Below, piece after piece: positions 1,146 through 38,865 of a stretch of DNA of 64,000 nt (its first letter is position 1; each line of letters opens with the position of its first letter). Position numbers and translations under genes: made by a program. This stretch comes from an uncultured virus (IMG/VR IMGVR_UViG_3300021197_001353). Lineage: Duplodnaviria; Heunggongvirae; Uroviricota; Caudoviricetes. Below the pieces are notes generated by a model, which saw only the letters and a program-made list of their open reading frames with translations, was not told the origin of the DNA and did no database searches. The stretch is from IMG/VR virus record IMGVR_UViG_3300021197_001353, one strand, 5' to 3'.

Positions 1146-2910
1146 TCTAACAGCACTACTATTAATATCTCTAACCGCTCTATCACAGAGTTGGGTTAAC
1201 GTAGAGTTACAAGCAGATCAATACTCGACAGAAACGAGTTGGTCTATTGTACAGGGGGATAGCACGTTTGCATCAGGGGGTCCTTACACAGAGCCCTTTC
1301 AGTATGTACAACAACTCGTAGAACTACCACCGGGTGAATACAACTTCGTAGTTGATGATGCTTTCGGGGATGGTATCTGTTGTGGGTTTGGGGAAGGATG
1401 GATTGGGATAAGCAATGCGTGCGGTCTCAATGATTACTATTACGACTTCAGCACTAGCCAACTCGTAGTATTCTTTGACCTACTACCATGTCCCCCACCT
1501 ATCTATGGATGTGGAGACCCACAAGCCCTCAACTATAACCCGGATGCATTCTTCGAAACTGATGACTGTGTGTACAATATCACATTCCAACTCGACCTGA
1601 ATGGACCACACCCACCAGAGATAGATATCCCAGAAGTTAACTCTTCAGTAAATGGATGGTGTGGAGACTGTTGGGCGATGAGTGATGATGACGGCGACGG
1701 GGTGTGGGAGATAACAGTCCCCATGCCACAAGGACAACACCTGTGGAAATTCTCCGCAGACGAATGGGAGGTTCAGGAACAACCAGTAGGTGTTTCTGAG
1801 TCTCCTTGTTTTTTGTTCGATGAAAACGGGTTTGTAAATAGGACCATCAATGTAGAAGGGCCTATGACCCTACCCCCATTCTGTTGGGAGAGCTGCCTAC
1901 CNNNNNNNNNNNNNNNNNNNNNNNNNNNNNNNNNNNNNNNNNNNNNNNNNNNNNNNNNNNNNNNNNNNNNNNNNNNNNNNNNNNNNNNNNNNNNNNNNNN
2001 NGGGAACGAAGAGGTCTTCGACATAGTTCTGTCAGCCCAGCAGGATATCGAGATATTCTTTTTCACCACACCGCAGTCACAGAATCAAATAGCACAATGT
2101 GGGTTCATGCTCGAAGGACCGACAGGGGACACACTGATTAATGTACCTCAGTGGAGCATGATCCCATTCCCCAACACATACAGCGTACGACCATACTGCG
2201 GGAATACCTGTATCCCATTCTCGTACGGATGCACAGACACACTAGCCTACAACTTTGACGTCAACGCCAACAGTGAGAACGGGACTTGCTACTACAACCC
2301 AGGCTGCACACAAGCAGGCTACTTGGAATACTACACGCAAGACTTTGAAGCTGACTATGATGACGGGAGTTGCCAGACACTAGCCATCTTTGGATGCACG
2401 GATGAAGAAGCAATGAACTACGAACCTGAGGCTAACGTAGACAACAACAGCTGCATAGCCATACTAGAGGGGTGCATGGACCCAGACGCCTACAACTATG
2501 ATGACGAGGCAAACACATCTACCCAATGCTTCTATGACGCTGGATGTATTACAGGTCCAGGAGAACCTTACTGGTTAAATGACCAATGCTATGCGTGGGT
2601 TATATCTGTTGACCCCTACTGCTGCCAAACAGCGTGGGACAATGTATGCGTAGAGCTGTATGAGTACTGCGGTGATGGGATAACCAATATACCCACTTAC
2701 GTTAACGACATCAACGTATTCCCTAACCCAACGAAAGATGCAATAAGTATACAGGCGCCGGAGGGTACAATAACAACTGTCTACAACTCTGTCGGGCAGA
2801 AGATCACAACAACCTCAGAGAAAAGAATTACCCTCCCAGCAGCTGGGGTGTACACGGTAGTAATCAACTACAAGGGTAGAGTAATAAAAGAAACAATAGT
2901 AAAACAATGA
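1072..2910 (+). CDS. Secreted Cys-rich protein with GCxD repeats, a CBM/Ig-like domain and a T9SS (Por) type-A C-terminal sorting domain
   Basis: Signal-like SLTALLLISLTALSQ; WAMSDDDGDGVWEITVPM motif (CBM48/early-set-like); about five GC(T/M/G)D..A.N(Y/F)-type repeats; C-terminus INVFPNPTKD...VYNSVGQ...GVYTVVI...TIVKQ. The ORF spans the 100-N gap and its start is uncertain. Confidence 0.8.
   Translation: MAKLNRLSTSLLSYTRRHIAVKAASLTALLLISLTALSQSWVNVELQADQYSTETSWSIVQGDSTFASGGPYTEPFQYVQQLVELPPGEYNFVVDDAFGDGICCGFGEGWIGISNACGLNDYYYDFSTSQLVVFFDLLPCPPPIYGCGDPQALNYNPDAFFETDDCVYNITFQLDLNGPHPPEIDIPEVNSSVNGWCGDCWAMSDDDGDGVWEITVPMPQGQHLWKFSADEWEVQEQPVGVSESPCFLFDENGFVNRTINVEGPMTLPPFCWESCLXXXXXXXXXXXXXXXXXXXXXXXXXXXXXXXXXXGNEEVFDIVLSAQQDIEIFFFTTPQSQNQIAQCGFMLEGPTGDTLINVPQWSMIPFPNTYSVRPYCGNTCIPFSYGCTDTLAYNFDVNANSENGTCYYNPGCTQAGYLEYYTQDFEADYDDGSCQTLAIFGCTDEEAMNYEPEANVDNNSCIAILEGCMDPDAYNYDDEANTSTQCFYDAGCITGPGEPYWLNDQCYAWVISVDPYCCQTAWDNVCVELYEYCGDGITNIPTYVNDINVFPNPTKDAISIQAPEGTITTVYNSVGQKITTTSEKRITLPAAGVYTVVINYKGRVIKETIVKQ
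1902..2001. other. Assembly gap (100 N)
   Basis: Run of exactly 100 N, likely a placeholder; the true gap length is unknown. Confidence 0.98.
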
Positions 2911-3947
2911 GATACGTAATAGCACTTACACTACTAGCACTTACCTTTAGTGCAAATGGGCAAGACTTCTACAACAAAGTCCTCCGACGAGCGACGTTCT
3001 ATGCAGCAGCCAACGGAGGGAATTCAATCTCGGATCAAAGCATCTATTCCTTATCCTCCGGGTCACTTGCAACGGATGTTGTTGAGACCCCCTTCGACTA
3101 CAGTCTCACCCTTGGGATTCGGAAGATTGCTCGATTCGGTTATGAGAATAGAGCTAATGTGTTCTATGATGGCACTGAAAACACGTACGGGGACGCAGCC
3201 ACAGTCGGTAAGAGGAACGGGTTTGAGTTCCTCGCGGAAGCAGACTGGAGACGTCAACAAGGACGCAACTTTCTCGACCAAGACTACTTTGTAAGATACG
3301 TAGCGGACAACTGGATTGTCAAGGCAGAGTGGTTGCAGGACGGGTTTGCAGACATACGATACTTCGAAGGGTCACAGAGAGTTAGAGCTAGAATTGGGGA
3401 CAAGCTATCCTTAAATGCAGGCATCGTACAGCGTATATCAGAGCCTTACGGGTACGACCCGCTTAGCGAGCTTACAATAGACAATCAACTACACTATACA
3501 TCGCTTGCATTAGACGAGGGGTATACAATAGATGTTAACACTGGTGAATTCTTTGACCCTAGTGGAGCACTAGCAGCAAACGATCCTGCAGTGTGGGAGC
3601 AGGTAGTGATTCCCCAAGTTCTAAATGACTACGTTTCTAGAAAGCGAGCTGAACTCCCCGACCAGTGGGTGCATTCTGTTGTAGTAGGCTATGATTTTTA
3701 CCACTACAGCAAAGATTTTTGGCTGCACTCATGGGGTAACATGATGCCCTATCACGTGAACACAAATGGGGAATATTCTTACCACAACTTTGTAAACAGT
3801 TCACAGTGGGTAGATTACTCATTAGGTATTATCTTTGGGGTAAAGTTCAACAAAAGCTTTGGGATATTCCTAGAGGGTAAGTACAACAAGTATTGGGATA
3901 GAGAATGGCATGACTTCTCTGTAGGTTTGAACTACATACTTATTTAA
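2907..3947 (+). CDS. Putative outer-membrane beta-barrel protein
   Basis: Signal peptide MRYVIALTLLALTFSANGQ; alternating aromatic/hydrophobic strands; C-terminal FSVGLNYILI resembles a beta-signal. Confidence 0.6.
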   Translation: MRYVIALTLLALTFSANGQDFYNKVLRRATFYAAANGGNSISDQSIYSLSSGSLATDVVETPFDYSLTLGIRKIARFGYENRANVFYDGTENTYGDAATVGKRNGFEFLAEADWRRQQGRNFLDQDYFVRYVADNWIVKAEWLQDGFADIRYFEGSQRVRARIGDKLSLNAGIVQRISEPYGYDPLSELTIDNQLHYTSLALDEGYTIDVNTGEFFDPSGALAANDPAVWEQVVIPQVLNDYVSRKRAELPDQWVHSVVVGYDFYHYSKDFWLHSWGNMMPYHVNTNGEYSYHNFVNSSQWVDYSLGIIFGVKFNKSFGIFLEGKYNKYWDREWHDFSVGLNYILI

Positions 3948-3948
3948 C

Positions 3949-4233
3949 ATGGCTAAGAAGATAGGTGAGGATACTCAGGTAACACTAGACCTGAAGACAA
4001 TAGGGATGGCAGCGACGGGGTTAGGAGCCCTTATCAGTATGTGGTTTGTCCTGCAGGCCGACATCGCAGAAGCGAAAGAGCTACCACTTCCTGCTGATCC
4101 CGAGATCACTCGAATGGAATTTGATATGAAAGACCAACTTGTACGTCAGACTATTATGACTACACAAGAGGATGTATCAGAACTTAAGCAGGATCTTGAC
4201 CGGATTGAGGAAAAAATCGATAAACTTAAATAA
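3949..4233 (+). CDS. Small membrane protein (1 TM + coiled coil)
   Basis: IGMAATGLGALISMWFVL TM segment followed by a heptad-rich tail. Confidence 0.7.
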   Translation: MAKKIGEDTQVTLDLKTIGMAATGLGALISMWFVLQADIAEAKELPLPADPEITRMEFDMKDQLVRQTIMTTQEDVSELKQDLDRIEEKIDKLK

Positions 4234-4241
4234 CATGAAAC

Positions 4242-4604
4242 ATGAAAACTGTAATGCTATATGCGCTATTGTTTGCGTTGTTACTGGTACCTGCATCCAC
4301 GGTAAGTAATAGTGACCCATCAATAGACAGTGGCATCTATGTCGTTGAGTTCAATGCGAGCTTTAACGCACAGAATAGTGTGCCCTGGATAGAAAGCATA
4401 ACTGAGTGCAAGCCCCTACGCGTAGACATAGGAAAAGCACCAGATATGCAAAAGGAGCACAAGATTGTGGTAGTACCAACGATCATTGTGTTCAGTGAGG
4501 GTGAGGAAATAGAACGTTTCCAAGCTAACATCATGATGACAATGGAGGCTACTTCAGACGAAGTTCAAGAAGTAGTTGATGAAATTATTTTGAGCGACTT
4601 CTAA
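4242..4604 (+). CDS. Exported thioredoxin-fold protein lacking CxxC
   Basis: Signal peptide; YVVEFNASFN in place of the WCxxC motif; cis-Pro loop IVVVPTIIVFSEGEEIERF. Confidence 0.7.
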   Translation: MKTVMLYALLFALLLVPASTVSNSDPSIDSGIYVVEFNASFNAQNSVPWIESITECKPLRVDIGKAPDMQKEHKIVVVPTIIVFSEGEEIERFQANIMMTMEATSDEVQEVVDEIILSDF

Positions 4605-4619
4605 GTTGCCGTATATTTG
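4589..4619 (+). promoter_or_regulatory. Bacteroidota promoter (-33 TTTG, 19-nt spacer, -7 TATATTTG)
   Basis: TTTG at 4589-4592 and TATATTTG at 4612-4619. Confidence 0.75.
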
Positions 4620-4860
4620 CAACCGAAACCGCTTTGCGACCGGCCCTAGGTAATCAGTAAGGGTCTAGACATCGGGTTACATTAGCTGTCAACATAGGCA
4701 GTGAACGTTGTCCCCGGTAGTTTCAAAAAGTGCGTTGGTATAAAACTCGGGTGGGAACCAGGCTATAGGCTGAAAGAAATGCCCCCACACAGGCTAAAAA
4801 CGGCGAGTGGAAGTCCAACTGCTAAACATTAAAAACCCAAGGGGGTAAATTGTATCTAGT
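4620..4860 (+). ncRNA. Candidate structured non-coding RNA or long 5' leader
   Basis: Longest ORF-free stretch in a tightly packed window, directly behind a full promoter. Several stems are visible: GGCCCT/AGGGTC, CTGTC/GGCAG, CCG..AGTTT/AAACTCGG, GTGGG/CCCAC. Confidence 0.5.
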
Positions 4861-4861
4861 C

Positions 4862-5278
4862 ATGAGAGAAATTAAGCGCATCATCCTGCACTGCTCCGCC
4901 ACTCCAGAAGGTAGAGACATAGACGCAGCAACAATAAAGGACTGGCACGTTAACGGAAACGGCTGGTCGGATATTGGGTATCACTACGTCATAAAAATTG
5001 ACGGTGATATTGAGACTGGTAGGCAATTGGATCGCGTAGGTGCGCATACCAAGGGTCATAACAAAGATTCCATAGGTATTTGCTATATTGGGGGCATGGA
5101 TGCAGACATGAACCCCAAGGATACAATGAACGAAGTTCAGGAGTCAGCAATGAAAGAGTTGATCTACTCGCTGAGAATGGTGTGGGACAAGCCTCTCACC
5201 CTGCACGGGCACAACGAGTACGCTAGTAAAGCGTGCCCTAGCTTTAAAGTAAGCGAGAAGTTCCCCAATCTTCTATGA
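4862..5278 (+). CDS. N-acetylmuramoyl-L-alanine amidase endolysin (T7 lysozyme / Amidase_2 type)
   Basis: Motifs IILHCSAT, GWSDIGYHYVI, GAHTKGHN, SIGICYIGG, HGHNE..KACPSF. ATG 4862 preferred over TTG 4850. Confidence 0.93.
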   Translation: MREIKRIILHCSATPEGRDIDAATIKDWHVNGNGWSDIGYHYVIKIDGDIETGRQLDRVGAHTKGHNKDSIGICYIGGMDADMNPKDTMNEVQESAMKELIYSLRMVWDKPLTLHGHNEYASKACPSFKVSEKFPNLL

Positions 5279-6000
5279 AAGTATTAATACACACTTTGGT
5301 GTGGAAAAGACCTGAGGCCACAGAGCTCACGTACAAGGGTTTTGATAGGATACAGGAAAGACTTAAAGAGTCAGGCATAGATTCCGAGGTGCTAATAACA
5401 TCGTCAGAACCTGACCACACTGCTAGAGCCATAATCAGAGGCTACAATGTCTTTGATTACAAGAACCTACCAGTGGCTGAGAAGTATGATGCAGCAATGC
5501 ATGAAACACTTGACTACGAGTGGGACTTCCTAATGGAGATGGGCAGCAATAATCTGCTATCCGATGAATACATCCAAAGGTGGGTAGATAAATGTAACCA
5601 GAAAGAAAACAGATTCTTTGGAAGCAACAGATTCCTGTGTTTGTCTGCAGATAGGAGACACACCGCCGAGTTTGTAACCCCAACCGTAAACAAACTAACC
5701 AACTTGGGGAGAGGGGCAAGAAGAGATGTATGGGAAAGACTGCAGGATATAGGATCGTTTGTACCAAATAAGGAAAGAAACGAAGGTCTTGACACCATGA
5801 GCAACTATATGGCCAAGAAGTTTGTGCTTGGTAGAAGAGGATACCGACACAACATATGTAAAGACTACAACGGAATGCTAGACTTCAAAAGCGTTGAAGA
5901 TATGCACGATGATTCCAAGCATGTCCCAGAAAAACGAAGGAAAAAGGCCGACGCACCATACCTAATAAAGTTATTTCCAGAACTACAGGATTGGATGTAA
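5275..6000 (+). CDS. Putative GT-A fold glycosyltransferase-like protein
   Basis: N-terminal strand plus W-K-R, then NLPVAEKY and WDFLMEMGSNNLL at the usual DxD position. Confidence 0.5.
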   Translation: MKVLIHTLVWKRPEATELTYKGFDRIQERLKESGIDSEVLITSSEPDHTARAIIRGYNVFDYKNLPVAEKYDAAMHETLDYEWDFLMEMGSNNLLSDEYIQRWVDKCNQKENRFFGSNRFLCLSADRRHTAEFVTPTVNKLTNLGRGARRDVWERLQDIGSFVPNKERNEGLDTMSNYMAKKFVLGRRGYRHNICKDYNGMLDFKSVEDMHDDSKHVPEKRRKKADAPYLIKLFPELQDWM

Positions 6001-6012
6001 GGAAATCTTTTA

Positions 6013-6020
6013 TATATTTG
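6013..6020 (+). promoter_or_regulatory. Bacteroidota -7 promoter element (TATATTTG)
   Basis: Consensus match; TTG at 5991-5993 with a 19-nt spacer; upstream of groES. Confidence 0.7.
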
Positions 6021-6036
6021 CCAAAACCAAACAATT

Positions 6037-6318
6037 ATGGCAAATATCAAATTCCAACCAACCCGAGATTGGGTTGTACTCCCAACTCAGCGTAGAAGCA
6101 AGACCGATAGTGGTATCGAGCTTGTAGGGGGAGCAGAGCGCTCTCTAAAAACAAACATACTTAAGGTAGTCGCTGTAGGACCAACGTGTGAGATGGTCAA
6201 ACAAGGCGACACAGTTATGGTTCACCCTAACTCAGAAGGACTAGTAATCCATCTGGATGAGGGTGAATTTGTTATGGTCAATGAATTCCAGATCTGCGGG
6301 GTATTCCCAGAGGGATGA
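6037..6318 (+). CDS. groES: Co-chaperonin GroES/Cpn10 homolog
   Basis: FQPTRDWVVL, mobile loop KTDSGIEL, VVAVGP, VKQGDTVMV, EFVMVNEFQICGV. Confidence 0.85.
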   Translation: MANIKFQPTRDWVVLPTQRRSKTDSGIELVGGAERSLKTNILKVVAVGPTCEMVKQGDTVMVHPNSEGLVIHLDEGEFVMVNEFQICGVFPEG

Positions 6319-8434: not shown

Positions 8435-8859
8435 TGGAATTAAACTATAAGAGGAAATATCTGATCGTAGGACCCTGGCCTAGAAACAGAAAGATAGTCA
8501 GGGATATACTAAGTAAGAACACCAATCTAGTCGTATCTCCTAGAAAACTCAGGCCTGTACAGCTTGCTCACTCAGATGTAGAGGTAGCTATAGGGGATGG
8601 TACCATGTCGTTTAACAATAGCCAGATATCCGTAAAAGACGGAGAAAACGACGTTAATGCCATGCGCAAATACAATATCCGTTTGATATACGTGTCTTCA
8701 TATAAATCCAGAGAGTCTCATATCCTCATAAGAGCTCATATAGAGCATTATAAAGACCTTGTTGAAGTCACACTACCAGAACCTATGTTTGAGAGGGAAG
8801 GAGCGGGTGCAGAAAGCAAGCTATTGACGATTTTCAAGGATAGATGGAATCATGTTTAA
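8434..8859 (+). CDS. Hypothetical protein
   Basis: 141 aa; TGATG coupling to the upstream ORF. Confidence 0.65.
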   Translation: MELNYKRKYLIVGPWPRNRKIVRDILSKNTNLVVSPRKLRPVQLAHSDVEVAIGDGTMSFNNSQISVKDGENDVNAMRKYNIRLIYVSSYKSRESHILIRAHIEHYKDLVEVTLPEPMFEREGAGAESKLLTIFKDRWNHV

Positions 8860-10804
8860 AAACAGCCACAAATATTCACCGGCTGCAAATCACTATCTAG
8901 AAAGAGGGTTTTATACTGATGCCATACCAGGTACTAGAGAATACTACGATCATTGGGATGAACAAAAACGAAGATGCTTAGAAGGGTACGAGGGATTAAC
9001 GGGTTATCACTATTTCTATCTCAATTACTGCCCAATAGACCGGGTAGTGGACGACATCATGGCAGATGGTACCAAGATCGCAAGAAGAGAAAGAACATTT
9101 CCTGCCTTCTACGACGGAGACCACGAGTACTTCACTGCGGTAGACGAGTGCAGAAAAACAAATAAGCATATGGTCGTGCTAAAAGCACGCCGTAAGGGAT
9201 TCTCATACAAAGCAGGGGCTATGCTGGCAAGGAACTACTTCCTAATGCGCAACAGCAAGAACTACGTGTTCGCCTCACAGAAAGAATACCTAATAGGTGA
9301 CGGCTTGCTGTCCAAGGCTTGGGATTTCCTGTCTTTTATAGACGATAATACAGCGTGGACCCAACCTCGCCTGCGTGACAGGGAGATGCACAAGCAGTCT
9401 GGGTATAAAAAGAATGTAAACGGAGCTGATGTAGAGCTGGGTATGAAATCCCAGATTATTGGCGTATCTTTAAAAGATAACCCAGACAAAGTCCGTGGTA
9501 AAGCGGGTGATCTCATATTCTTTGAGGAAGCAGGTTCATTCTCCGGGCTATTAAAGGCTTGGGAGGTAGCTATGCCAACAATGAGACAGGGATCAAAAAC
9601 CCTGGGTACAATGATAGCATTTGGAACAGGTGGAGAAGAAGGAAGCGGGTTTGACGGGATGGAAGAACTATTCTATCACCCAGACTCATACGACTGCATG
9701 GCATTCGACAACGTATGGGATGCCGGGGCCATGGGTACCCAGTGCGGATACTTTGTACCAATTCAACAAAACCTAGACGGCTTCATAGATGAAGACGGAA
9801 ACTCACTAAAACAACAAGCTAAAGAACATGAAGAACAGCAACGCGAAAAAAAGAAAGGGGCCAACGACCCAAAAGCGCTCGACCAATACACGGCAGAACA
9901 CCCGTTCACGCCGCAGGAAGCAACCCTCCAAGTCACAGCCAACCTCTTTGATGTTACGTCTCTTAAAGAGCAGTACAACAAAATTAAAACTCATGGTCTC
10001 GAAAGTGAAGGCACTTCTGGGATAATGTATTACGACAAGGAAGGTAAGTCAAAGTTTAGACCTTCCGCAGATGTATCAGCAGTTTACAAATTCCCACACA
10101 GAAAGGGGGACAAAACCGAAGGGGCAGTTGTAGTATACCAAGCTCCGCACCTCACAAAAGAGGGGGAGGTGCCACACAACCTGTATTTAATATGCCATGA
10201 CCCCTACGCGCAATCTAAGTCTACAAGCAATGAATCGCTTGGAGCGGCCTATGTAATAAAGAGACCTAATAACCTGTCCAAGCCGGACGATATAATAGTA
10301 GCTAGCTATGTTGGGAGACCACGAACGCAAGATGAATACAACCGCAATCTATTTATGCTCGCGGAGTATTATAACGCAAAAATCGGATTCGAAAACGACC
10401 GTGGGGAGCTTATTGCTTACGCGAAGAGATATCGCAAACTGCATAAGCTACAGGAAGAGTTTGAAATGCTGGACAAGAGGGAACTCAGATCTAGGAATGT
10501 AAAGCGTCAGTACGGAATGCATATGACAGAGCAACGTAAAAGACAGGGAGAGTTGTATATTAGAGACTGGTTGATAACTCCTAGGCACACTGACGAGGAA
10601 GGCAATGTGACATTGAATCTGCATAAGATCTATGATCCAGCCCTCCTCCAGGAGTTCATCAAGTTTAATCACAAAGGAAACTTCGACCGTGTGATGGCTT
10701 TTATGGTGGGCATGTACCACACACGAGAGTTATATAATAGAGAAGTAGTAGAAATAGTAAACGACAGGTCAACCGATAACTGGTTTGACCGACTTTATAA
10801 GTAA
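8852..10804 (+). CDS. terL: Terminase large subunit
   Basis: TGYHYFYLNY; Walker A LKARRKGFSY; Walker B LIFFEEAG; FGTGG; nuclease motifs CHDPY and GNFDRVMA. Typical of crAss-like TerL. Confidence 0.95.
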   Translation: MFKNSHKYSPAANHYLERGFYTDAIPGTREYYDHWDEQKRRCLEGYEGLTGYHYFYLNYCPIDRVVDDIMADGTKIARRERTFPAFYDGDHEYFTAVDECRKTNKHMVVLKARRKGFSYKAGAMLARNYFLMRNSKNYVFASQKEYLIGDGLLSKAWDFLSFIDDNTAWTQPRLRDREMHKQSGYKKNVNGADVELGMKSQIIGVSLKDNPDKVRGKAGDLIFFEEAGSFSGLLKAWEVAMPTMRQGSKTLGTMIAFGTGGEEGSGFDGMEELFYHPDSYDCMAFDNVWDAGAMGTQCGYFVPIQQNLDGFIDEDGNSLKQQAKEHEEQQREKKKGANDPKALDQYTAEHPFTPQEATLQVTANLFDVTSLKEQYNKIKTHGLESEGTSGIMYYDKEGKSKFRPSADVSAVYKFPHRKGDKTEGAVVVYQAPHLTKEGEVPHNLYLICHDPYAQSKSTSNESLGAAYVIKRPNNLSKPDDIIVASYVGRPRTQDEYNRNLFMLAEYYNAKIGFENDRGELIAYAKRYRKLHKLQEEFEMLDKRELRSRNVKRQYGMHMTEQRKRQGELYIRDWLITPRHTDEEGNVTLNLHKIYDPALLQEFIKFNHKGNFDRVMAFMVGMYHTRELYNREVVEIVNDRSTDNWFDRLYK

Positions 10805-10813: not shown

Positions 10814-13027
10814 ATGTACGGTAGCTATAAAATACCGCAGCAAAGGCTGCCGCGTTCTAAGAAAACAACCAAGTGGGCAGAAGATTGCGTAAAAGCATTT
10901 GTTGACATGTCAAAGTTTGGATTGTCTGAACGACGATCTGATCTAACACAGTTGTACGAATACTACAATGGAGTTGTCAACGACGATGACTACAGCTACG
11001 TACTAAAGCCTTATGGAAAGTCACGATCTAACTTTCCCTCTAAGATGCGTAACTACCCAATCATCAAGCCTATCATTGACTTGTTGCTGGGAGAGAAAGC
11101 AAAGAGACCGCTCAACTACTCGGTCACAGTAAGTAACGCAGACTCCGTATCTCAAAAAGAAGAAGCTAAAAAGAAAGCATTGTTTACACAAGTGCAGAAG
11201 ATGTACTTGAATGAGTTTGCAAAGCAAACAGACTTCGACCTGCAGGAACAAGAATTAGAGCTGCCCAAGCAGATTATGGAGGAGTTTGAACGTACTTACG
11301 TAGACAACAGAGCCATCAAGGGACAAAGTGCCGTCAACTATATCATGCATCACCAAGAGATGTATGACAAGTTCCAGAAAGGATTCTTCCACTTCTTGGT
11401 TACGGGTGAGTCTTACTCCCACAAAGGAGTGCGCCGTGGTGAGCCGTTCTATGACATCATCAACCCACTTGATGTAGACTTTGACAAAGACCCAGACATA
11501 GAGTTTGTGGAAGACGGGGACTGGGCAATTATACGTAGGTACGCACACGCGTCTACAGTAGTAGATATCCTGGGAAACTACTTGACACCCGAACAGGTAC
11601 TGGAGCTTGAGAACCCTAGACAGGAATCAGCCGAAACATATCTATTGTCCCGATCAGAAATGGCCGGTGCGAATGAAAACATGTACCGCAACAGGATGAT
11701 GGAGGTTGTTACTGTGTACTGGAAGAGCCGTAAGCGTATAGGCTTCGTGACTTACAAAGACCCCAATACAGGCACAATTGAAGAGATGGAGGTAGAGGAC
11801 GGCTTCAGAATGCCCGCTGAAATGAAAGCACAAGGAGGCAAGTTGAAGTACGAGTGGGTAAACGAAGTATGGGAAGGCACACGAATCGATGGTAGATTCT
11901 TTGTCAAGATGTCCCCGATATCTAACCAGAGAACGTCACTAGACAATCCGTCACTGTGTAAGCTCCCAATCAACGGACGTCGTTACTCTGACATCAACTC
12001 AAAGAACATATCACTCGTGTCTTTGGGTATCCCGTTCCAATTGAACTACAACATATTCAAGTACCGCATGGAGCTGGCGATTGCGAGGTCTAAGGACATC
12101 ATCGCTCAGTTTGATATCAACATGATACCCAAGAAATGGGACATGGACAAGTTCATGTACTTCGTTGAGGGCACTGGTATTGCTTGGGTAGACTACAATA
12201 AAGAAGGTATACAACTCTCACCTCAACACCAGTCCGTGCTGGATATGTCCATCAAGACTATATCACAATACCTCCAGCTGCTGGAATCTATTATGATGGA
12301 GTGGGAGAAGATATCAGGTGTAAACAGACAACGCCAAGGCGGCATCGGTCCCTATGAAGGAAAAGCAACATCCCAACAAGCGATTGTTCAGTCATCGCAC
12401 ATTACTGAAGATCTTTTCCGCAAATTCTCACGATTTGAGCAAAGAGAACTCCAAGGCCTTTTGGATTACTCTAAGGAAGCTTGGCTTACAGGGAAAAAAG
12501 CGATGTACGTCATGCCCGACATGACCACAGAAATGATTGAGATAGACGCTATGCAGCACATGGAAAGTGAGTATGGCATATTTGTTTCTGATGCTGGACG
12601 CGACCAAGATAAATTAGAGCAAGCAAAAGCACTTTCTCAATCAATGATACAGAATGGGGTTCCGGCTTCAGCAGTCATGGATTTGTTTGACACAGAGAAC
12701 TATGCAGGGATTAAGGATAAGATTGCTTCTGCAGAACGAGCACAGAAAGCGTTGGAGGCAGAGCAACAGAAAGCTCAGCAGGCCGCTCAGATAGAGCAGC
12801 AGAAGACTCAGCAGATGCAGATACAGCAACAAGCTGTAGACAAAGAAAAGGATCGTCAGTTGGCTATCGAGATTGAACTTATCAAGGCGGAATCTAGAGA
12901 TACTGATAACCGTCTAGAGATAGACATGGCTAAGATGGCCAAGGACTTCGAGATTAAGGAGAGAGAGCTAGAGCTGAAGCAGCAAGCACTCAACAAGGAG
13001 GGAGATCTTACACCTGATGGCAAATGA
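10814..13027 (+). CDS. Portal protein
   Basis: Follows TerL; motifs PQQRLP, NYPIIKPIIDLLLGE, WVNEVWEGTRI, ISGVNRQRQG; C-terminal Q-rich coiled coil. Confidence 0.92.
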   Translation: MYGSYKIPQQRLPRSKKTTKWAEDCVKAFVDMSKFGLSERRSDLTQLYEYYNGVVNDDDYSYVLKPYGKSRSNFPSKMRNYPIIKPIIDLLLGEKAKRPLNYSVTVSNADSVSQKEEAKKKALFTQVQKMYLNEFAKQTDFDLQEQELELPKQIMEEFERTYVDNRAIKGQSAVNYIMHHQEMYDKFQKGFFHFLVTGESYSHKGVRRGEPFYDIINPLDVDFDKDPDIEFVEDGDWAIIRRYAHASTVVDILGNYLTPEQVLELENPRQESAETYLLSRSEMAGANENMYRNRMMEVVTVYWKSRKRIGFVTYKDPNTGTIEEMEVEDGFRMPAEMKAQGGKLKYEWVNEVWEGTRIDGRFFVKMSPISNQRTSLDNPSLCKLPINGRRYSDINSKNISLVSLGIPFQLNYNIFKYRMELAIARSKDIIAQFDINMIPKKWDMDKFMYFVEGTGIAWVDYNKEGIQLSPQHQSVLDMSIKTISQYLQLLESIMMEWEKISGVNRQRQGGIGPYEGKATSQQAIVQSSHITEDLFRKFSRFEQRELQGLLDYSKEAWLTGKKAMYVMPDMTTEMIEIDAMQHMESEYGIFVSDAGRDQDKLEQAKALSQSMIQNGVPASAVMDLFDTENYAGIKDKIASAERAQKALEAEQQKAQQAAQIEQQKTQQMQIQQQAVDKEKDRQLAIEIELIKAESRDTDNRLEIDMAKMAKDFEIKERELELKQQALNKEGDLTPDGK

Positions 13028-15254: not shown

Positions 15255-16679
15255 ATGGCTTTGATGCAAGTACTTAAGTCGTACTATAACGACCAGCAGA
15301 TGACCGACACTAATTCGTTGGTCAATGCATTAATGGAGAAGCCCGAAGAGCTCTCTCCTATTATTACGCACTTGGCCGGACGTGAAGAAAAGAAATTTCC
15401 TCTTTCCTTCTTGTCTGAGGGGGTTGGAAACACGAGATCGATCGATAGATTCGAGTACGAGTACCGTGTCAAAACTCATGAAGTAAACGTCCGACCAGTG
15501 GTTTCCGCTAGTGGAACCGGTGCGGGTGGAGCAACGTTTACCGTTGTTTTCCCCGACAAGTGGTTCATTTTCCCTTACACCCTCGTATCTCAGAGTGGTG
15601 CTTTGGCTCGTATTATGGAAGAGCCCAAGCCTGTTTCTGGTGGATATGAATACACCCTTAAGTTGGTTAGCCCAGATCAAGGTGCTCTCGCATCTAGTGC
15701 TGGCGGTGACTTGGCAGCAGGTGCCCTCTTCGGCATGCTGTTTGCTAACGTCGGAATCGACTTCTCACGCGGAAACGCTTCTAACTGGAGCGCACCCGGG
15801 TTGGTGAGATCTAAGATCGGTACCGTACGTAAGTCTTACCACTTCTCTGGTAATGCTAAAGACTACGTTGCTGAGTTTACTCTCCCACTGAAAGAAGGCT
15901 CATCCACGAAGTTGTGGATGGACTACGAGGAGTACCGTCACATGCTCAAGTTTAAGGAAGAGTGTGAGATGTACTACTGGTACGGAAGCAAGACTTATGA
16001 TGACAAGGGTGCCAACAAAATGTTGGACGAGAACGGTCAGCCAGTTATCTCTGGACCTGGTTTGTTCGAGCAGATCATCAATAAGGACAGTTACTCTACC
16101 CTAACTCAGAATAAGATCGAGGAAGTCATTGGTGACTTGTTCTACGGCATGACTGATGCTACGGACAAGCAAGTGACATTGTTCACTGGTGTTGGTGGTG
16201 CACGTGAGTTCGATAAGGCTCTGCGTAACTACTACAACGGTAACCCATACCTCCAGACTACCGAGTCTAAGTTCATCACCGGTAGCGGTCGTAGTCTTGG
16301 AATCACTGGTTACTTCAACTCTTATGAGCACATTGATGGTCATAGGGTGAACGTAGTTAAGGTTCCTCTTTTCGATCACGGTCCTGTTGCTCAGGCTTCT
16401 AAGAAGCACCCTGAGTCTGGATTGCCGTTGGAGTCCTACAGAATGACATTCGTTGACCAATCTTCTTACGATGGAGAAAACAACCTCCAGATGATCAATA
16501 AGAAGGGTCGTGAAATGTTGCGCTGGTGTGTCGCTGGTTCAGTTGTGCCTAAGGGCTTCAATGAGACCGACACTCGCGCAAGTGATATAGACGGTGCTTC
16601 TGTGCACATGTTGAAGACAGCTGGTATCCTGCTCCGCAGATTCGATACTTCGCTCGACTTGACTTGCACTGCATCGTAA
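15255..16679 (+). CDS. Major capsid protein (crAss-like)
   Basis: 474 aa; MTDTNSL, GPGLFEQI, LFTGVGGAREFD, PLFDHG, PLESYRM motifs; strongly biased codon usage; position after portal and scaffold. Confidence 0.92.
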   Translation: MALMQVLKSYYNDQQMTDTNSLVNALMEKPEELSPIITHLAGREEKKFPLSFLSEGVGNTRSIDRFEYEYRVKTHEVNVRPVVSASGTGAGGATFTVVFPDKWFIFPYTLVSQSGALARIMEEPKPVSGGYEYTLKLVSPDQGALASSAGGDLAAGALFGMLFANVGIDFSRGNASNWSAPGLVRSKIGTVRKSYHFSGNAKDYVAEFTLPLKEGSSTKLWMDYEEYRHMLKFKEECEMYYWYGSKTYDDKGANKMLDENGQPVISGPGLFEQIINKDSYSTLTQNKIEEVIGDLFYGMTDATDKQVTLFTGVGGAREFDKALRNYYNGNPYLQTTESKFITGSGRSLGITGYFNSYEHIDGHRVNVVKVPLFDHGPVAQASKKHPESGLPLESYRMTFVDQSSYDGENNLQMINKKGREMLRWCVAGSVVPKGFNETDTRASDIDGASVHMLKTAGILLRRFDTSLDLTCTAS

Positions 16680-20548: not shown

Positions 20549-23500
20549 ATGGCAAATTTTGTAGCATATACCAAGCGTCTTTCCGATAGACGCTTTCCCA
20601 CAATACATGTAGTAGACGCTTACGCAGGCGGAGGCGGAGACTTCATAAATGTGGGATTGGACGGCGCGGATCAAAGATTCTACGGAGACGATGCAACTAT
20701 AGATGGGATGTGTGGTAGCTCTGGTCCTGATAATATATCGTATCACGAGGGGGTAGTCGGCACCAATGAACCAAATTTTGCTACGCGTCAAGTTGTAGGA
20801 GTGCAGGTAACTCGCATTGAATCATACAGCAGCACCGGTACCAAGATTAGTGCTGTTAAAGGTGCAGCTCTTTGCCAATATGTAGAAAAAACTGAACACC
20901 TGTACTTAGCAAACGGGCACCTTCAGATAATGGTGTACTTCCTAGAAGACTCTATGAATAGTATATCCTCAACTAATGGAGGATTAGTCTTACAATTTAA
21001 TGTTCTTCTTCAAGGTTCTAACTCTCTAATCGCCGGTGTTACAGAAATGCGAGGGAGTAAAGAGCACGTAAAAGTTACTCTCAATGTGCCTTTTGACGAT
21101 GGGGATACGGCATCCCACAATCCTTCAATAGACCTAGACGCATGGCTATACGGCGGCGGCGGTACTGATTTTGGCCATCATGTTCGGGTTCAAGACATAG
21201 GGCTCACTCAGACTAAGCAAATATGGAACACCGTAAGAACACAAGTAGTCGGCCATACTACGTTTGGGGCAAACACGCTGCCGGACCCCCTCACTAGCGG
21301 TAATTATTCGTATCCAGCGGGAAGTAGAATATACCCCCTGCATGGTGTTATACCGCGAAAAAAGACTGCCGAGCCTGCAGGATACAGCTTTAGACATATA
21401 GACAATTGTAGAGAGCTAACCTCAAGGTCAACCTACCAATCTCTAATTACCAATTTCGGCGGAGAACAAATCCAAGGAAGTGATTCTTACAAGCGTCTAC
21501 TGGTGTACGAGGAGTTTACAGCGAGTGGCGATTTACTACACTTAGGAGAATTGTTCGGGCACGCCCAACAAGACACTCTAAACAGTGATGGGTTCTCGAC
21601 CAAAGAACAATGGGGAAAGTACACAGGAGTCCTTTGCTCCTCATTTAGTAGACAAGATCCTAATTACGGCCCCGAATCTCTCACTGACTATCCCGGAGGA
21701 TGGCCTACGACCGGTACCGGAAATGCACTATCGTCAAACGCTTGGCAGGCTAGTACACCACTAGGGCTTTTTACTTCTTTTGGTGGTCAATCAAGAGTTT
21801 TCCTAGATGGAAGTAGTAGAAATCCGTACGATGGAGTAATACCTATTACTTCGACTACCCAGGGCAACGTGAACGGGCGGTTACTTAACAAACAATATAG
21901 CAACTACGTAACATTTTACTGTATAGATGGAACAAGCTGGGGGGACAATAAAAACATACCTAGCGATATCACCAATACTCCTGCCGACCAAGGACGAATC
22001 TCGTGGGGTGGGCACGTAGGGGATATTATCAGGCAGAGTGTATCCGACATACTTGGAACAACTGCAACAACCCTCGTTGATGATAACTGCACTAGATATA
22101 CAGAAAGCGGGCCGTTTGAATATGGAAGTTTAACTTCCTACCACGAGTATGTTGGCCAAGGTTTTGGAAACTGGCAAAACTACGTAGGATTTCTTTTCAA
22201 CGGGACATCTGTTCCTAATGTTGTCTCTGCCAAAGAAGACGAGTTTACCTCACTTACAGGAGGCACCAATCATAGTGATGCACTGCCTGATATATTTGAT
22301 GTAAAATTCTCAGCCGCAATATCCCCTGTCTCCAAAATGACCGGGGTCAAGATGCTGGCAATGAATAAGGGCATAGATCTTCTTACGAACCCTGTAGAAA
22401 CAGATCAATTCTACGGCATGAGTGGAGCTTTTGGCGGCGGCAACGCTGACCCCACTATAGACGTAAGAGGTAAAAAATTGTTTACCTACACAGTGTTTGT
22501 TTACACAGACAGTTCGCAATCTAAAGTGCCTGTTGGCGACCAAGTACATCCATTTGGATCAGTCAGCGGGGAGCCTGCGGAAATCTCTGAACAATATCTC
22601 AACGAAGCCTATAGTGGTAATGGTGATATTGTTAGTACGCAAGCTAGTATATCGGACATCCCTCATATTCAAGACTTGACATTTGATGTGTTCATCAATA
22701 GTAGTTTTAGCCTTACAGTTGGTCTCCCTCACTTTGACTGGGGAGCCGCCAACCTAGTGGATAACAAATGTGTAGATAGAAATAGTGAAGAGTTCTCTCC
22801 AATATTTGAAATTAATTCAAATACTTCCGACTTCATATACATCAACGCAAATGTATGCGGCGACATTGATTACGGAAGATGTGGATGCGGGGAGGATCGT
22901 CAAGACTATATTACAGACGAACTAGGGTATTTAAGCGCCTTTAATTTTACTGAATCTGGTAGAAACCAGTATGAAGCGGTGATAACCTACCCACGTCCGG
23001 TAACTACTCACCAAAGCAGCGTACTTTCTCCGACAGCTACATACACAAGTATTCTGTATGTGAACAGTTACTTTTCTGTTAAAAGTACAGCTGCAAGCCC
23101 CCTAGCCAATAACAGCTACGCGGCATTGTACCTTAATATATCGAATGAGAATCCTTCCCAGGTTACGTATCGTACAAGCGATGACACACCCCACACTCAC
23201 CTACTTCAGGACGGAGACTTTTCTACACTATCCGTATATCCTCAAACCATATGGTTTGATGAGCTGGACGATAAGTCGATAGCAGACAATACGTTTACAT
23301 TCTTCTACCTGCCCGGCAGGGATCACTACGAGACTGTTGACGGATCTTCGTTCTTCGCACACGATGAGTCTACTGAAGCTAAAGCTTATCTGACTGTAGG
23401 AAGCCACCTCAATCAATACCAAAGTAGCCCATTTGGAGTAGGAGTTGGGCAGCTAATACCTAACAGGCAGTACTTGCTGTTCGAAGCGGAGACCGCAGCC

Positions 23501-26500
23501 ACTAAGGAATTGAGTAGTCAAAGGGCTCACTCGGACCTGGAGTTTGGTGAAAGCTGGACACAGTCGGATACAGAAGCTAGCTATATATCATTAGGAGCAA
23601 CTGCAGATTGTATAACTGCTGAACAAGACAAACCAAAACGTAAAGTCAATTGGTTTGTTAATGTAGGAAGAAAGGTATCTCAAGGCGTAGATGATGGTGG
23701 TGGAGATGATGGCGGTGGCGGAGACGACGACAAGCCGGGGTGCACAGACCCCAACGCACTGAATTACGATGCCGGTGCAAACCTCGATGACGGGACCTGT
23801 GTATTTTGCGATGACACCTTTACTGAGAACGCATCAGCAACATTTGCAAATCTAGATCCAATATTCCTACTACCCCATGCATACGGGGGTCGAGACACCA
23901 CCAACTACATCACTGGGTCTACGGCCAAAACGCAAGGAGCGCAAACCGTAAATGATGGAGGATGTGACGGAGACCTGCATAACTGTAATCCAGAAGTTTT
24001 ATTTGGGCAGGGATTTGCAGGCAACGAGGTGTTTGAGTGGTGGGACGGCAATTACTTTAATGCGTTTAACACAAGGGGTCCTAATACTGACTTTACTGTT
24101 GGTGCGTTAAATGGGGCTAATCCAAGTTCTCCGTTTGCTGGCTCCCCTTGGAACAACGAGGCTGATTCCGCACAAACGTTTTTCCAAGCTAAAGCTGGGA
24201 ACAGCGGTGCATTCAATGGAGCAACGGACGCTATATTTGATCAGTTTGGAGTTGAAGATGCGGGACTTAAGCAGCAGCTTCTGGAGGTGTGGGAATCGCT
24301 AGCCGCTGAGCAAGCTAGCAATCTTTCCATGCACATATTTAGATATGAGGACTGGAATAAACCAGAGCCTTTGGCGGTAAGAAGAAATGTAGACCAAGGC
24401 AATAACGGGTGGGCACTAGATAGCTATACAGGAACATTGGCTCCTGGGAAGTACAAAGCAAATGTTTATGCTGACACTCAGGGAGATTTCTCTGGTATAG
24501 GTTTTCATAACATGAACGAGCTTGCCACACTCCCAAACCAAGAAAGTGCCTCATTTGAGCTTGCGTATAAATTCGGAAACATAGGAGCTCCAAACAACCC
24601 TACAACTAACACAGACATAGGGCTTGAAGCTGGACACCACTACGTAGCAATACTTAAATTTAGACCGAAGAGGACATGTCCGGTCATAAACAATGAACCG
24701 TTGTTTTACTACTGGGCATACAATTTCTTTGTAGAGTACTGTGCTTGCACAAACGATGCTTCAGAGAATGGGGGATATGGAAATCCAGATCAAGCAGCCC
24801 TTTCTGCCACAGAAGCCCCTTACTGGGTGGATGCGCCTTGGGGAGGATCTTCTTATTTCCCAGCAACAAATGCACCCTACAGTGGGATAATGACCGGCAC
24901 ATTCGGAGCTACTGGAGCTTTCCCTACTACTTTCTGTGGAGCAGGAGCAGCCTCAAGACTCATAGGAGGAGGAAGAGATAGAGTTGACGATAGTGCACTT
25001 GGTAATACAGCTTTGTGTGCAGTAAGAGATCCTGATTCTATCAGACCCTGCGAGGACTTTTACTCGTGGTGTCTTTCTGACATCAGCGTAACTTGCAATT
25101 TTGATGGGGATGGAAATCCATTTTTAAGTTTGGACTTCGCAGTTTTGATAGATGGATTCTTTACCCAAAGTGAAACAGATCCGTACAACCTGCAGCCTAT
25201 ATATGAGACAGGGCAGATGCCTCCTAATGAATACTACTACTGGAGGATAAACGTTCTGCAAAACGGGGAGGAAACATATAGCATTGATAACTATATCCCA
25301 GCGTCGGGCAGCACATACGAATTAAACCCAGCAATTGACATTACCAATTCGCAGGCTGAAGGTGCAACAGATTACATAGGAAATCTTGCATCCCTTAATT
25401 TTACAGGCATAGAATGGTCAGATGATGTAGACGGTGTTGCCGGAGTAGATGATCTGCAATTAAATGTACAGCTAGTTTATCTAGGAACGATAAATATAGT
25501 AACTGGTGCGATTAACAATTCTTACCCAGACTTCATAGTAGACGCCGAAGATAATCCTGTCGACACCTGCCCAGTATCTGAATTAAGCTATACAGCAAGT
25601 CTAGGTGGATGTGAGGCGGAAGTGCCAGGATGCACAGATCCGTTAGCCAGCAACTTCGATCCCCTTGCCTCCGAGGACGACGGGTCATGTAGATACACTG
25701 ATTGCGAAGAGCTATTTGATTCTTTCAAATCTTCCATATTCATAACAGACGTAACAACAACTAATGATACTCTGCAATGCACTGAGTTCTTAGACATCGA
25801 TGTAGACATAGATTACTACATACCCCAATATTCTGCTACGATGGTGATCACCATAGAAGACTATGCTGCAGGAGTGTTAGGTGTAAGTAACCTAGGCTTG
25901 ACGGAAGGTCAGTTTACAATATGTGTTCTTAGGATGCAGGAAGGTGCAGCGACATTGCTCCCATCAGCTTTGCAGTATTTCAATGACAATGCTGAAGCTA
26001 TACAAGCTTTGAATCCTGGAGTTGCATTTAATATAGGTGCAGAAGGCAATGGTCTAAATGGGTGTTTCCTTGCACCAGAGGTAGCCTCATCGCCTAACGT
26101 AACATCAACAGCTTCACAAACAGATCCTGCAGGCCTGCCCGGCACTAAGTATATTACCGACCTGCCCGCAGACACAATATTCAGTGACGGAGAACAACTT
26201 CTCACAGCTGGTCAGTATTTGATATTCGTTATACCTTTTGTTGACCTATCTGGTATTCAAGACGCCGAAGGAAACGGACTGGGGCAATGTGATGATATAT
26301 TCATTAACTACATAGATGAAGTAACTATCTCTACCATTGGAGCAACTGTAGATCCCTCTGCTACATGTCCTGAACCCTGTAACCAGTTTACAAACCCAGA
26401 GGACTGTCCAGATGCCAAACCAGGGTGCACCAATCCAGACGCGGAAAACTACAATGAGGAAGCCACCTTTGACGATGGAAGTTGTGAGTTCTGCACGGAC

Positions 26501-37889: not shown

Positions 37890-38865
37890 TACAACATCTA
37901 CACAGCATATCATTCGTAAGGTCATGCGGGACATCAAACCGGATGACGCTAACTGGACGTACGATGCTGTAGAGTGGGTAGGAGAAGCATTGGAGCATAT
38001 AGGTGCCGGTGCGCATGTAGAAACTAGAGGCTGCGTTATCGATGTTAAAGACTTTAAGGCATCACTGCCTGCTGACGTATACTATGTCAATCAAGTTTCA
38101 ATTAACGAAGTAATAGGAGCTAACACCTCAGCATTGGATACCCAATTGGAACAAGCTGTTACTAGTATAAAGAGCGATCTTAATGCTATTGACTTCATAA
38201 ATACCAGTCTTAGAAATACCATCGATATTGATCCTGTAACTGGGCAAAATGCTGTCTACATAAGTGAAGGTGCAGCAGACCTATTGAGTAGCGTGGGTAA
38301 AGGGCTAGACGGGTCAGTTCAACGAGCATTAATACGACTGGAAGTGTACGCAAGAGATTACTACACTAGAGATCAACAAACTGTATTGGCGTACTGTACA
38401 ACAAACTTTCCAGACGCACTTCACTGCGAGGGGTGTGTAAACAAAGAAGCCCAATCCAAAGAATGTTACTACATAGAGAATGGTAGAATAAAAACATCTT
38501 TTAAGGAGGGAAAAGTTTGTTTGACCTACACAGCATTTGCAACTGATACTGACTGTTACCCTCTGATACCGGATGACATTAGCTACAAAGAGGCTGCATT
38601 CTGGTACATATACAAAAAGCTTTTGCTTGCTGGGCTGCATGACCCAAGCAACAACGGCATAGACTACAACTTCGCAGATCAGAAGTGGAAGTACTACTGC
38701 ACTCAAGCACGCAATGATGCTAAGTTCCCAGACATCGCAAAGTACGAGTCATTCATGAACCAATGGGTTCGTTTAGTTCCCAGAATCAATCTCTTTGATG
38801 AAGGCTTTGAAAGCCTAGGAGACAGAGAAAACTTGTACAGAGGTAATTACACTACTAGCTCATGA
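37876..38865 (+). CDS. Tail ring / tubular protein (P22 gp4-like position)
   Basis: EWVGEALEHIG, IKTSFKEGKVCLTY, YPLIPDD, WKYYCTQA. Confidence 0.8.
   Translation: MATYNTTSTQHIIRKVMRDIKPDDANWTYDAVEWVGEALEHIGAGAHVETRGCVIDVKDFKASLPADVYYVNQVSINEVIGANTSALDTQLEQAVTSIKSDLNAIDFINTSLRNTIDIDPVTGQNAVYISEGAADLLSSVGKGLDGSVQRALIRLEVYARDYYTRDQQTVLAYCTTNFPDALHCEGCVNKEAQSKECYYIENGRIKTSFKEGKVCLTYTAFATDTDCYPLIPDDISYKEAAFWYIYKKLLLAGLHDPSNNGIDYNFADQKWKYYCTQARNDAKFPDIAKYESFMNQWVRLVPRINLFDEGFESLGDRENLYRGNYTTSS

Follow-up and report, generated by a model that had tools for sequence, protein, structure and literature searches.

What occupies the gap between the thioredoxin-like and amidase open reading frames (ORFs) of an uncultured marine crAss-like phage? 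The window analyzed here, the whole 64,000-nucleotide (nt) stretch of IMG/VR record IMGVR_UViG_3300021197_001353, is part of this phage, and every sizeable ORF in it lies on the + strand. Between positions 4605 and 4861 there is no credible ORF, and stop codons occur in all frames. The first-pass annotation of this DNA had recognized the interval as ORF-free and had proposed that it encodes a novel phage non-coding RNA (ncRNA) or a lysis-timing riboregulator. Our comparative analysis indicates that positions 4621–4859 are, close to certainly, a real structured RNA of about 235 nt on the + strand. The term novel phage ncRNA is appropriate, since the element is conserved, covarying, strand-specific and promoter-driven and has no match in Rfam 15.

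To collect homologues, 160 IMG/VR loci were fetched via the amidase and the thioredoxin-like protein, and the gap region matched 33 of these 160 loci in blastn at 82–91% identity. The RNA region (80–91% nt identity) was more conserved than the adjacent amidase coding sequence (65–79% nt and 68–86% amino acid (aa) identity) in 12 of 12 pairwise comparisons. An exact 20-nt word of the second structural domain was present in 55 IMG/VR contigs, and a pattern of two invariant motifs from the first domain in 75, of whose loci 23 were judged new by contig name. The number of IMG/VR contigs with a homologue is at least 75. From 19 sequences we built a covariance model, R1, which matched all 56 sources of the first set and all 23 further sources, the latter with scores from 244 down to 29.7 bits. 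In the window, cmsearch with R1 gave a single match at 4621–4859 on the + strand (261.8 bits, E 6e-79), which covers all 238 model positions.

RNAalifold and pair counts support ten helices in two domains. Compensatory changes were counted in a close set of 44 distinct rows and in a divergent set of 16 distinct members. Domain 1 (4625–4724) is predicted to be closed by H1 and to form a four-way junction of H1, H2, H3 and H4/H5. H1 pairs GAAAC (4625–4629) with GTTTC (4720–4724), and compensatory changes were found in three of its five pairs in the close set and in four of five in the divergent set (100% paired). The H2 hairpin consists of CGC (4630–4632) and GCG (4636–4638). Its middle pair is GC in 18 cases, AU in 14, UA in 6 and CG in 2, and all three pairs are compensatory in the divergent set. 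H3 (GGCCCT 4642–4647 with AGGGTC 4660–4665), the loop of which has GGTAAT, showed compensatory changes in three of six pairs in the close set and five of six in the divergent set. H4 (ATCGGG 4671–4676 with CCCGGT 4713–4718) is an RNAalifold prediction, flanked by the invariant TAGAC and GT..AG. H4 never varies: all 41 distinct rows of the set gathered by the domain 2 word are identical here, so that covariation is uninformative for this helix; the invariance is not by design in that first set and is by design in the second. The variable hairpin H5 (GCTGTC 4685–4690 with GGCAGT 4697–4702) is compensatory in three of six pairs in the close set and in all six in the divergent set.

Domain 2 (4732–4822) is predicted to be closed by H6, which pairs GCGTTGG (4732–4738) with CCAACTGC (4815–4822); four of its seven pairs are compensatory in the close set and all seven in the divergent set. 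H7 (ACTC 4745–4748 with GAGT 4805–4808) is invariant in the close set and compensatory in four of four pairs in the divergent set. H8 (GGGTGGG 4749–4755 with CCCACAC 4784–4790) is nearly invariant in the close set, and compensatory changes appeared in six of six pairs in the divergent set. H9 (GGC 4761–4763 with GCC 4781–4783), which closes a conserved 17-nt loop, is likewise invariant in the close set and compensatory in three of three pairs in the divergent set. H10 (GCT 4793–4795 with GGC 4802–4804), inside a conserved AGGCTAAAnACGG stretch, is weak, with one compensatory pair of three in the divergent set. At the junctions of the fold there are many invariant unpaired nucleotides. The word TAGACA/TAAACA occurs twice in the RNA, at 4666–4671 before H4 and at 4823–4828 after H6, and is conserved at both places.

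In the close set, 98.4% of the cells were paired and 15 of the 51 pairs were compensatory. When the partners were slid by 1–3 columns as a control, only 28–48% were paired. In the divergent set, 94.7% of the cells were paired and 41 of the 51 pairs were compensatory. None of 500 shuffles reached as high a value in either set; as the sequences are related, these shuffle counts are not probabilities. Both alignments used for the counts (A3 and A4) had been fitted to the model, so that the counts are biased towards the structure. The MAFFT alignments A2 and A5, in which the 5′ helices of the divergent members were misaligned, were used neither for the counts nor for building a second model.

Two long-range pairings were also found. 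PK-A pairs GTT (4707–4709), in the internal loop of domain 1, with AAC (4825–4827), in the linker after H6. It is paired in all 42 distinct rows (100%), and one of its pairs is C-G in 24 rows and U-A in 18 with zero exceptions, a switch that probably reflects few independent events. PK-B is a pseudoknot between TATAA (4739–4743), which directly follows the 5′ strand of H6, and TTGTA (4850–4854), with a wider form of GGTATAA (4737–4743) and TTGTATC (4850–4856). In the close set, PK-B is 99.5% paired. Among 38 distinct combinations including the divergent members, 6.24 of the 7 positions pair, versus 4.38 ± 0.14 with shuffled tails (maximum 4.82 in 500). Because the changes are mostly one-sided (G-U, A-U, G-C), the support for PK-B is complementarity and not strong covariation. 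The 3′ linker between H6 and PK-B contains a conserved AAGGGGG run (4839–4845), and every divergent member has RAGGGG, whether or not an ORF abuts.

Five stems had been proposed from the single sequence, and three of them belong to the covariation-supported structure: GGCCCT 4642–4647/AGGGTC 4660–4665 is H3, CTGTC 4686–4690/GGCAG 4697–4701 is H5 and GTGGG 4751–4755/CCCAC 4784–4788 lies within H8. The other two (4621–4626/4672–4678 and 4714–4723/4743–4750) had to be replaced, since the real partners are 4671–4676/4713–4718, 4625–4629/4720–4724 and 4745–4748/4805–4808. An alternative pairing of CCCCC with GGGGG was not kept; the divergent members retain the G-run, yet lack a C-rich 3′ strand in H8. 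The assignment of the RNA to the + strand from G-U pairs agrees with the many G-U pairs in the alignments.

A promoter of the Bacteroidota type precedes the RNA directly. A regex scan placed it at 4589–4619 on the + strand, with the −33 element TTTG at 4589–4592, a 19-nt spacer and the −7 element TATATTTG at 4612–4619. The 64-kb window has only one further full match besides this −33/−7 promoter, which the first-pass annotation had already noticed. Among 52 distinct upstream sequences, a TAnnTTnG −7 box lies just upstream of the RNA (H1) in 48, and 37 have the strict form TAnnTTTG. The −7 box is retained although the upstream genes differ. Two related claims need revision. The gap is not clearly the largest ORF-free one in the window, since 469–786 is longer (318 nt in a crude + strand ORF call). 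Furthermore, a distance of 4–16 nt between promoter and ATG holds for four of the five other intergenic −7 boxes (6013, 10802, 14084 and 50731) and fails for the box at 999, which is 65 nt away. The ORF-poor stretch 469–786 is followed by this promoter-like site (TTG and TATATTTG at 999–1006), 65 nt before a 612-aa ORF at 1072, which gives the phage a further long leader. The 612-aa ORF has a weak match to a type IX secretion sorting domain.

The sole open frame in the gap is a 43-codon GTG frame at 4701–4832. It is disrupted by one-base indels in three relatives (L161, L172 and L175). With stops in all frames and these indels, no open frame is kept among the relatives, as a protein-coding region would require.

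We then asked how widely the RNA is distributed. Exactly one copy was found in each of four phage records, three of them complete. In all four, the large terminase gene lies 2.2–8.5 kb downstream of the RNA on the same strand. The terminases of these records are 89, 87, 37 and 34% identical to that of the window. Since the RNA and its fixed position are kept at a terminase identity of 34–37%, the RNA is old within this branch of the crAss-like phages. The family belongs to a clade of aquatic crAss-like phages. R1 had no match in 99 loci fetched via more distant amidase or thioredoxin-like relatives. In phage phi14:2, neither R1 nor the domain 1 pattern at up to 3 mismatches gave a match. With filters off, the best scores in the gut crAss-like phage cr125_1 (20 kb around the terminase) and in Flavobacterium phage FpV4 (12 kb) were 7.9 and 6.9 bits, which is noise. 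In blastn, positions 3900–5400 had no match in 50,697 phage records. A 19-mer scan of 185,579 prokaryote genomes returned one match, which lies inside a bacterial gene, scores 7.8 bits and was rejected as chance.

No known RNA family accounts for the element. None of the 4227 models of Rfam 15 matched the whole window at the gathering threshold. When the threshold was relaxed to E 10, 4500–4950 yielded no more than a chance snoRNA match (E 2.5), and a search of 15 divergent loci at E up to 5 gave no match on the RNA. The RNA was thus previously uncatalogued in this sense. ARAGORN detected no tRNA or tmRNA gene in the window. Domain 1 shares a four-way junction with the tRNA cloverleaf, and the junction lengths differ. 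RNase P RNA (RF00010) was found in none of the four RNA-bearing phage records at E up to 10, and the control was positive in 11 of 14 genomes; the short motifs GGAAATCC and ACAGAAA give a superficial likeness to RNase P, which was rejected. GOLLD, ROOL and HEARO (Rfam) are likewise phage-borne, ornate RNAs of unknown function that were found comparatively, whereas the present RNA has no Rfam match, is shorter (about 235–300 nt) and holds a fixed position before the packaging genes.

In the literature searched, no description of this RNA was found; such a description may still exist. Fremin et al. (2023, PMC10690425) catalogued over 10,000 candidate structured RNAs in the same source collection, IMG/VR, with the same kind of evidence, and the present family may be among their unnamed candidates. 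The main text of that article does not contain the words ‘crAss’, ‘amidase’, ‘endolysin’ or ‘Bacteroid’. The main text of PMC8375218, on the crAss001 transcriptome, has ‘non-coding’ in its reference list only and lacks ‘intergenic’, ‘leader’ and ‘untranslated’. In the preprint by Drobysheva et al. (bioRxiv 10.1101/2020.03.07.982082), the crAss-like phage phi14:2 is described as having abundant non-coding transcripts whose role is unknown, and its middle and late genes as being transcribed by the host polymerase. Like the present RNA, these transcripts are non-coding, of unknown role and from a marine crAss-like phage; unlike it, they come from the early region, and phi14:2 lacks a match to R1 or to the domain 1 pattern. 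In phi14:2 (L292), about 1.7 kb at 2904–4602 are without an annotated gene, earlier gene calls having been withdrawn. This stretch coincides with the region of the very abundant non-coding transcripts as given in the same preprint, and R1 shows no relation of it to the present RNA.

The RNA (4621–4859, +) lies between the thioredoxin-like ORF and the Amidase_2 ORF and heads a train of lysis, packaging and structural genes in the + direction. The thioredoxin-like ORF (4242–4604, +, 120 aa) matches Pfam Thioredoxin weakly, at an E value (0.0011) that does not pass the cut-off. The upstream gene varies among the relatives, so that the thioredoxin-like ORF is not linked to the RNA in all of them. 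Downstream is the N-acetylmuramoyl-L-alanine amidase gene (4862–5278, +, 138 aa, ATG at 4862; Pfam Amidase_2, E 2.5e-13; PHROG 822, E 8.8e-54). PHROGs further identified a GroES-like co-chaperonin ORF (6037–6318, +) with a promoter-like box TATATTTG at 6013–6020, the large terminase (8852–10804, +), the portal (10814–13027, +), the major head protein (15255–16679, +) and giant virion proteins. With its counterparts in gut crAss-like phages, the large terminase shares 41–43% identity. Three ORFs are giant, at 20549–27694 (2381 aa), 38862–45374 (2170 aa) and 50745–62126 (3793 aa); PHROGs gave a match (virion structural protein) for the second alone.

The gene that follows the RNA was examined in 61 distinct members. 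In 42 of them, the ATG of an ORF of at least 40 codons occurs within 8 nt, in practice 1–5 nt, after the end of PK-B. The next ORF is 9–40 nt away in 4 members and more than 40 nt away in 13, and it is cut or absent in 2. In every member examined, the ORF regarded as the downstream gene shares the strand of the RNA. In the window and in most relatives, the RNA abuts the start codon of the amidase. In divergent lineages, the abutting ORFs are unrelated ones of 454, 69, 49 and 49 aa. In the L161 group, a DUF5675 protein is encoded 27 nt after the RNA. The lysis enzyme is exchangeable: in some phages (L161, L165, L195), DUF5675 (159 aa, Pfam E 8.8e-26) takes the place of the amidase behind the RNA, and in others (L179, L184, L196, L211, L252) it lies upstream on the opposite strand. 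In seven lineages (L179, L184, L196, L211, L252, L257 and L236), a GroES-like gene with its own TATATTTG box follows 70–80 nt after the RNA. The box of the GroES-like gene is conserved, 16 nt before the ATG, in the window and in distant relatives (L252, L257 and L236). As the GroES-like gene has its own box, the RNA and the lysis genes are a separate small unit in front of it. In L249, the tail of the RNA is followed by a two-codon mini-ORF (ATG AAG TAA), a strong AGGAGG and a 71-aa membrane-like ORF; such an AGGAGG is unusual for a phage of the Bacteroidota type.

A Shine-Dalgarno-like word within 25 nt was found at only 3 of 42 gene starts in the window. Since the phage hardly uses such sites and the spacing is poor, the G-run of the RNA is not an ordinary ribosome-binding site. 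A scan for terminators of the canonical type detected no site on the + strand after the RNA in the window, L252 or L184. Thus, of the two marks of a stand-alone small RNA gene, an own promoter is present and a canonical intrinsic terminator was not seen. In the lineages where the RNA stands alone, AU-rich hairpins occur between it and the GroES-like gene.

Expression was assessed from assembled contigs alone. Marine metatranscriptome runs contain 40–60% of the sampled words of the RNA. Three RNA-library contigs from two studies span the junction between the RNA and the amidase gene: X1 (4710–4981), X2 (4730–4933) and X5 (4805–4955). Each has at least 31 letters on both sides, 0–1 differences and a depth of 3–7. 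The contig beginning at 4627 (X5) is one read long and is not a mapped 5′ end. No contig covers 5039–5900 or 4235–4301, which carries no evidential weight. Upstream of the RNA, metatranscriptome contigs that are less than 90% alike stack at 4101–4176, with a summed depth of up to about 500, inside a 94-aa ORF (3949–4233). A short motif of this ORF seems to be common to many abundant marine transcripts.

We tentatively favor, at a little under an even chance, a cis-acting 5′ leader that gates downstream expression. This reading is favored because the RNA starts at a promoter, same-strand genes always follow, no terminator was detected and the 25 nt before the start codon are locked in the predicted fold. 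Host RNA polymerase would transcribe the RNA from the conserved Bacteroidota-type −33/−7 promoter, and the two domains would be tied together by the two long-range pairings. The 3′ strand of PK-B (4850–4856) and the G-run (4839–4845) would then occupy the 25 nt before the start codon of the next ORF, here the amidase. Full folding would lock the initiation region and so gate the downstream gene or genes, and a trigger (ligand, protein or folding kinetics) would relieve or strengthen the gate. Transcription in vivo, action in cis and gating are what we infer; the existence of the RNA, its strand, promoter, fold, single copy and conserved position are shown. Two features of a riboswitch are present, namely a conserved covarying aptamer-like core and a leader position on the strand of the gene (abutting in 42 of 61 members, more than 40 nt away in 13). 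As for the mutually exclusive pairings of an expression platform, PK-B overlaps the initiation region, and neither a competing covarying helix nor a terminator-like site was seen. In translational riboswitches of the SAM-II and preQ1-II type, a pseudoknot takes in the ribosome-binding region. The present RNA shares with them a 5′ leader from a promoter, a conserved covarying core and a pseudoknot whose 3′ strand immediately precedes the start codon. It differs in lacking a sequence or model match, in being 3–5 times larger, in having downstream genes without a common theme and in that a quarter of its members have no abutting ORF. A lysis-timing riboregulator, as first proposed, is only a possibility, because other lineages place the RNA before unrelated ORFs or before a GroES-like gene with its own promoter.

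The leader reading has to be weighed against three other functions, which we rank in the order of a trans-acting RNA, an antitermination element and a ribozyme. Several observations weigh against it. In 13 of 61 members, over 40 nt separate the RNA from the next ORF, and the whole RNA including its tail is still conserved there; such stand-alone lineages fit an autonomous function better. The downstream genes (amidase, DUF5675 and unknowns) have no common theme, and the G-run, at 16 nt from the ATG, lies beyond the normal reach of a ribosome-binding site. No mutually exclusive (off/on) pairing with covariation was found. The bridging contigs are compatible with co-transcription; they show no ends, strand or level, and DNA carry-over is possible. 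Moreover, the RNA is not universal, being absent within 2.5 kb in six GroES-bearing relatives. The bias of the pair counts and the folding energy given below belong on the same side. A stable trans-acting ncRNA or part of a ribonucleoprotein, binding a conserved host or phage component (e.g., RNA polymerase, ribosome, nuclease or defence protein), is possible, if on the unlikely side; the neighboring ORF would start at the end of the RNA merely through genome compactness. The full RNA with its tail is conserved where no ORF abuts and the next gene has its own promoter box. Its core sequence is extremely conserved across phages with terminases 34–37% identical, beyond what is usual for a leader, and more strongly than the adjacent gene. 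The complex fold of two domains and two long-range pairings, the heterogeneous downstream genes and the abundant non-coding transcripts described for phi14:2 in the preprint (bioRxiv 10.1101/2020.03.07.982082) also suit such an RNA. However, the window, L252 and L184 show no terminator-like site after the RNA, RNA-library contigs continue into the amidase ORF, a same-strand ORF is always next and abuts in 42 of 61 members, a partner was not identified, and phi14:2 lacks a homologue.

If the element served processive antitermination in cis, the nascent RNA would modify its own polymerase, which would then read through more than 55 kb of same-strand late genes. Its functional parallels would be the put RNAs of HK022 or the antitermination that depends on leaders in Bacteroides capsule operons. 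The pR′ leader transcript of lambda and the put RNAs of HK022 are late-operon leaders of lambdoid phages, and the present element resembles them as a promoter-proximal RNA of about 200 nt heading a long operon in which lysis comes first, followed by terminase, portal and capsid. It is single-copy at the head of a one-directional gene train and is conserved even where a second promoter box follows, and the AU-rich hairpins before the GroES-like gene in stand-alone lineages point in the same direction. Nevertheless, the fold is unrelated, far larger and more elaborate than the two-hairpin put RNAs and, unlike those leaders, conserved across phage families. In addition, the promoter-like boxes of downstream genes (6013, 10802, 14084 and 50731) mean that a single long transcript is not required, and the canonical scan identified no terminators to override. 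We therefore regard antitermination as rather improbable. A ribozyme, for example a self-cleaving or self-processing RNA that sets the 5′ end of the downstream mRNA, would explain the many invariant unpaired junction nucleotides and the pseudoknotted fold, and small self-cleaving ribozymes are common in phages, where this RNA occurs. Neither the Rfam 15 ribozyme families nor RNase P RNA (0 of 4 records, with the control positive in 11 of 14 genomes) matched, and we consider a ribozyme quite improbable. Finally, the region might hold no functional RNA at all and be a decayed ORF, an element acting at the level of DNA (origin or packaging site) or the product of chance. The 43-codon GTG frame (4701–4832) and the folding energy speak for this. 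The first-pass annotation had named a folding energy no better than that of dinucleotide shuffles as a refuting outcome, and the + strand indeed does not fold better than such shuffles (z +0.67, with 155 of 200 shuffles folding at least as well; − strand, z +1.08). The structure stands despite this result because covariation overrides it; the evidence is comparative, not energetic, and a poor single-sequence folding score is no argument against a real structured RNA. Compensatory changes preserve G-U pairs on one strand only, the frame is broken by one-base indels, conservation exceeds that of the neighboring coding sequence, and a replication origin at 4.6 kb was rejected, as there is no GC-skew turn at the site. 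A non-functional region is hardly credible.

The cis-acting leader thus remains our preferred reading of an RNA that stands at a telling place. How late genes are switched on in crAss-like phages, which in both gut and sea rank with the most abundant Bacteroidota phages, is not understood. Here, a complex single-copy RNA is located exactly at the start of the lysis, packaging and capsid genes, and it is nearly unchanged across phages with terminases at about 35% identity. RNAs so ornate and conserved have mostly proved to be ribozymes, riboswitches or parts of ribonucleoproteins. The family supplies RNA biologists with an alignment and a model, and phage biologists with a handle on late-gene control. 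It is conceivable, if unlikely, that the RNA represents a new riboswitch or ribozyme class restricted to crAss-like phages, which senses a small molecule or the state of the cell and times lysis and late genes. If so, it would be the first RNA-based timer of lysis and late genes in the most abundant group of Bacteroidota phages.

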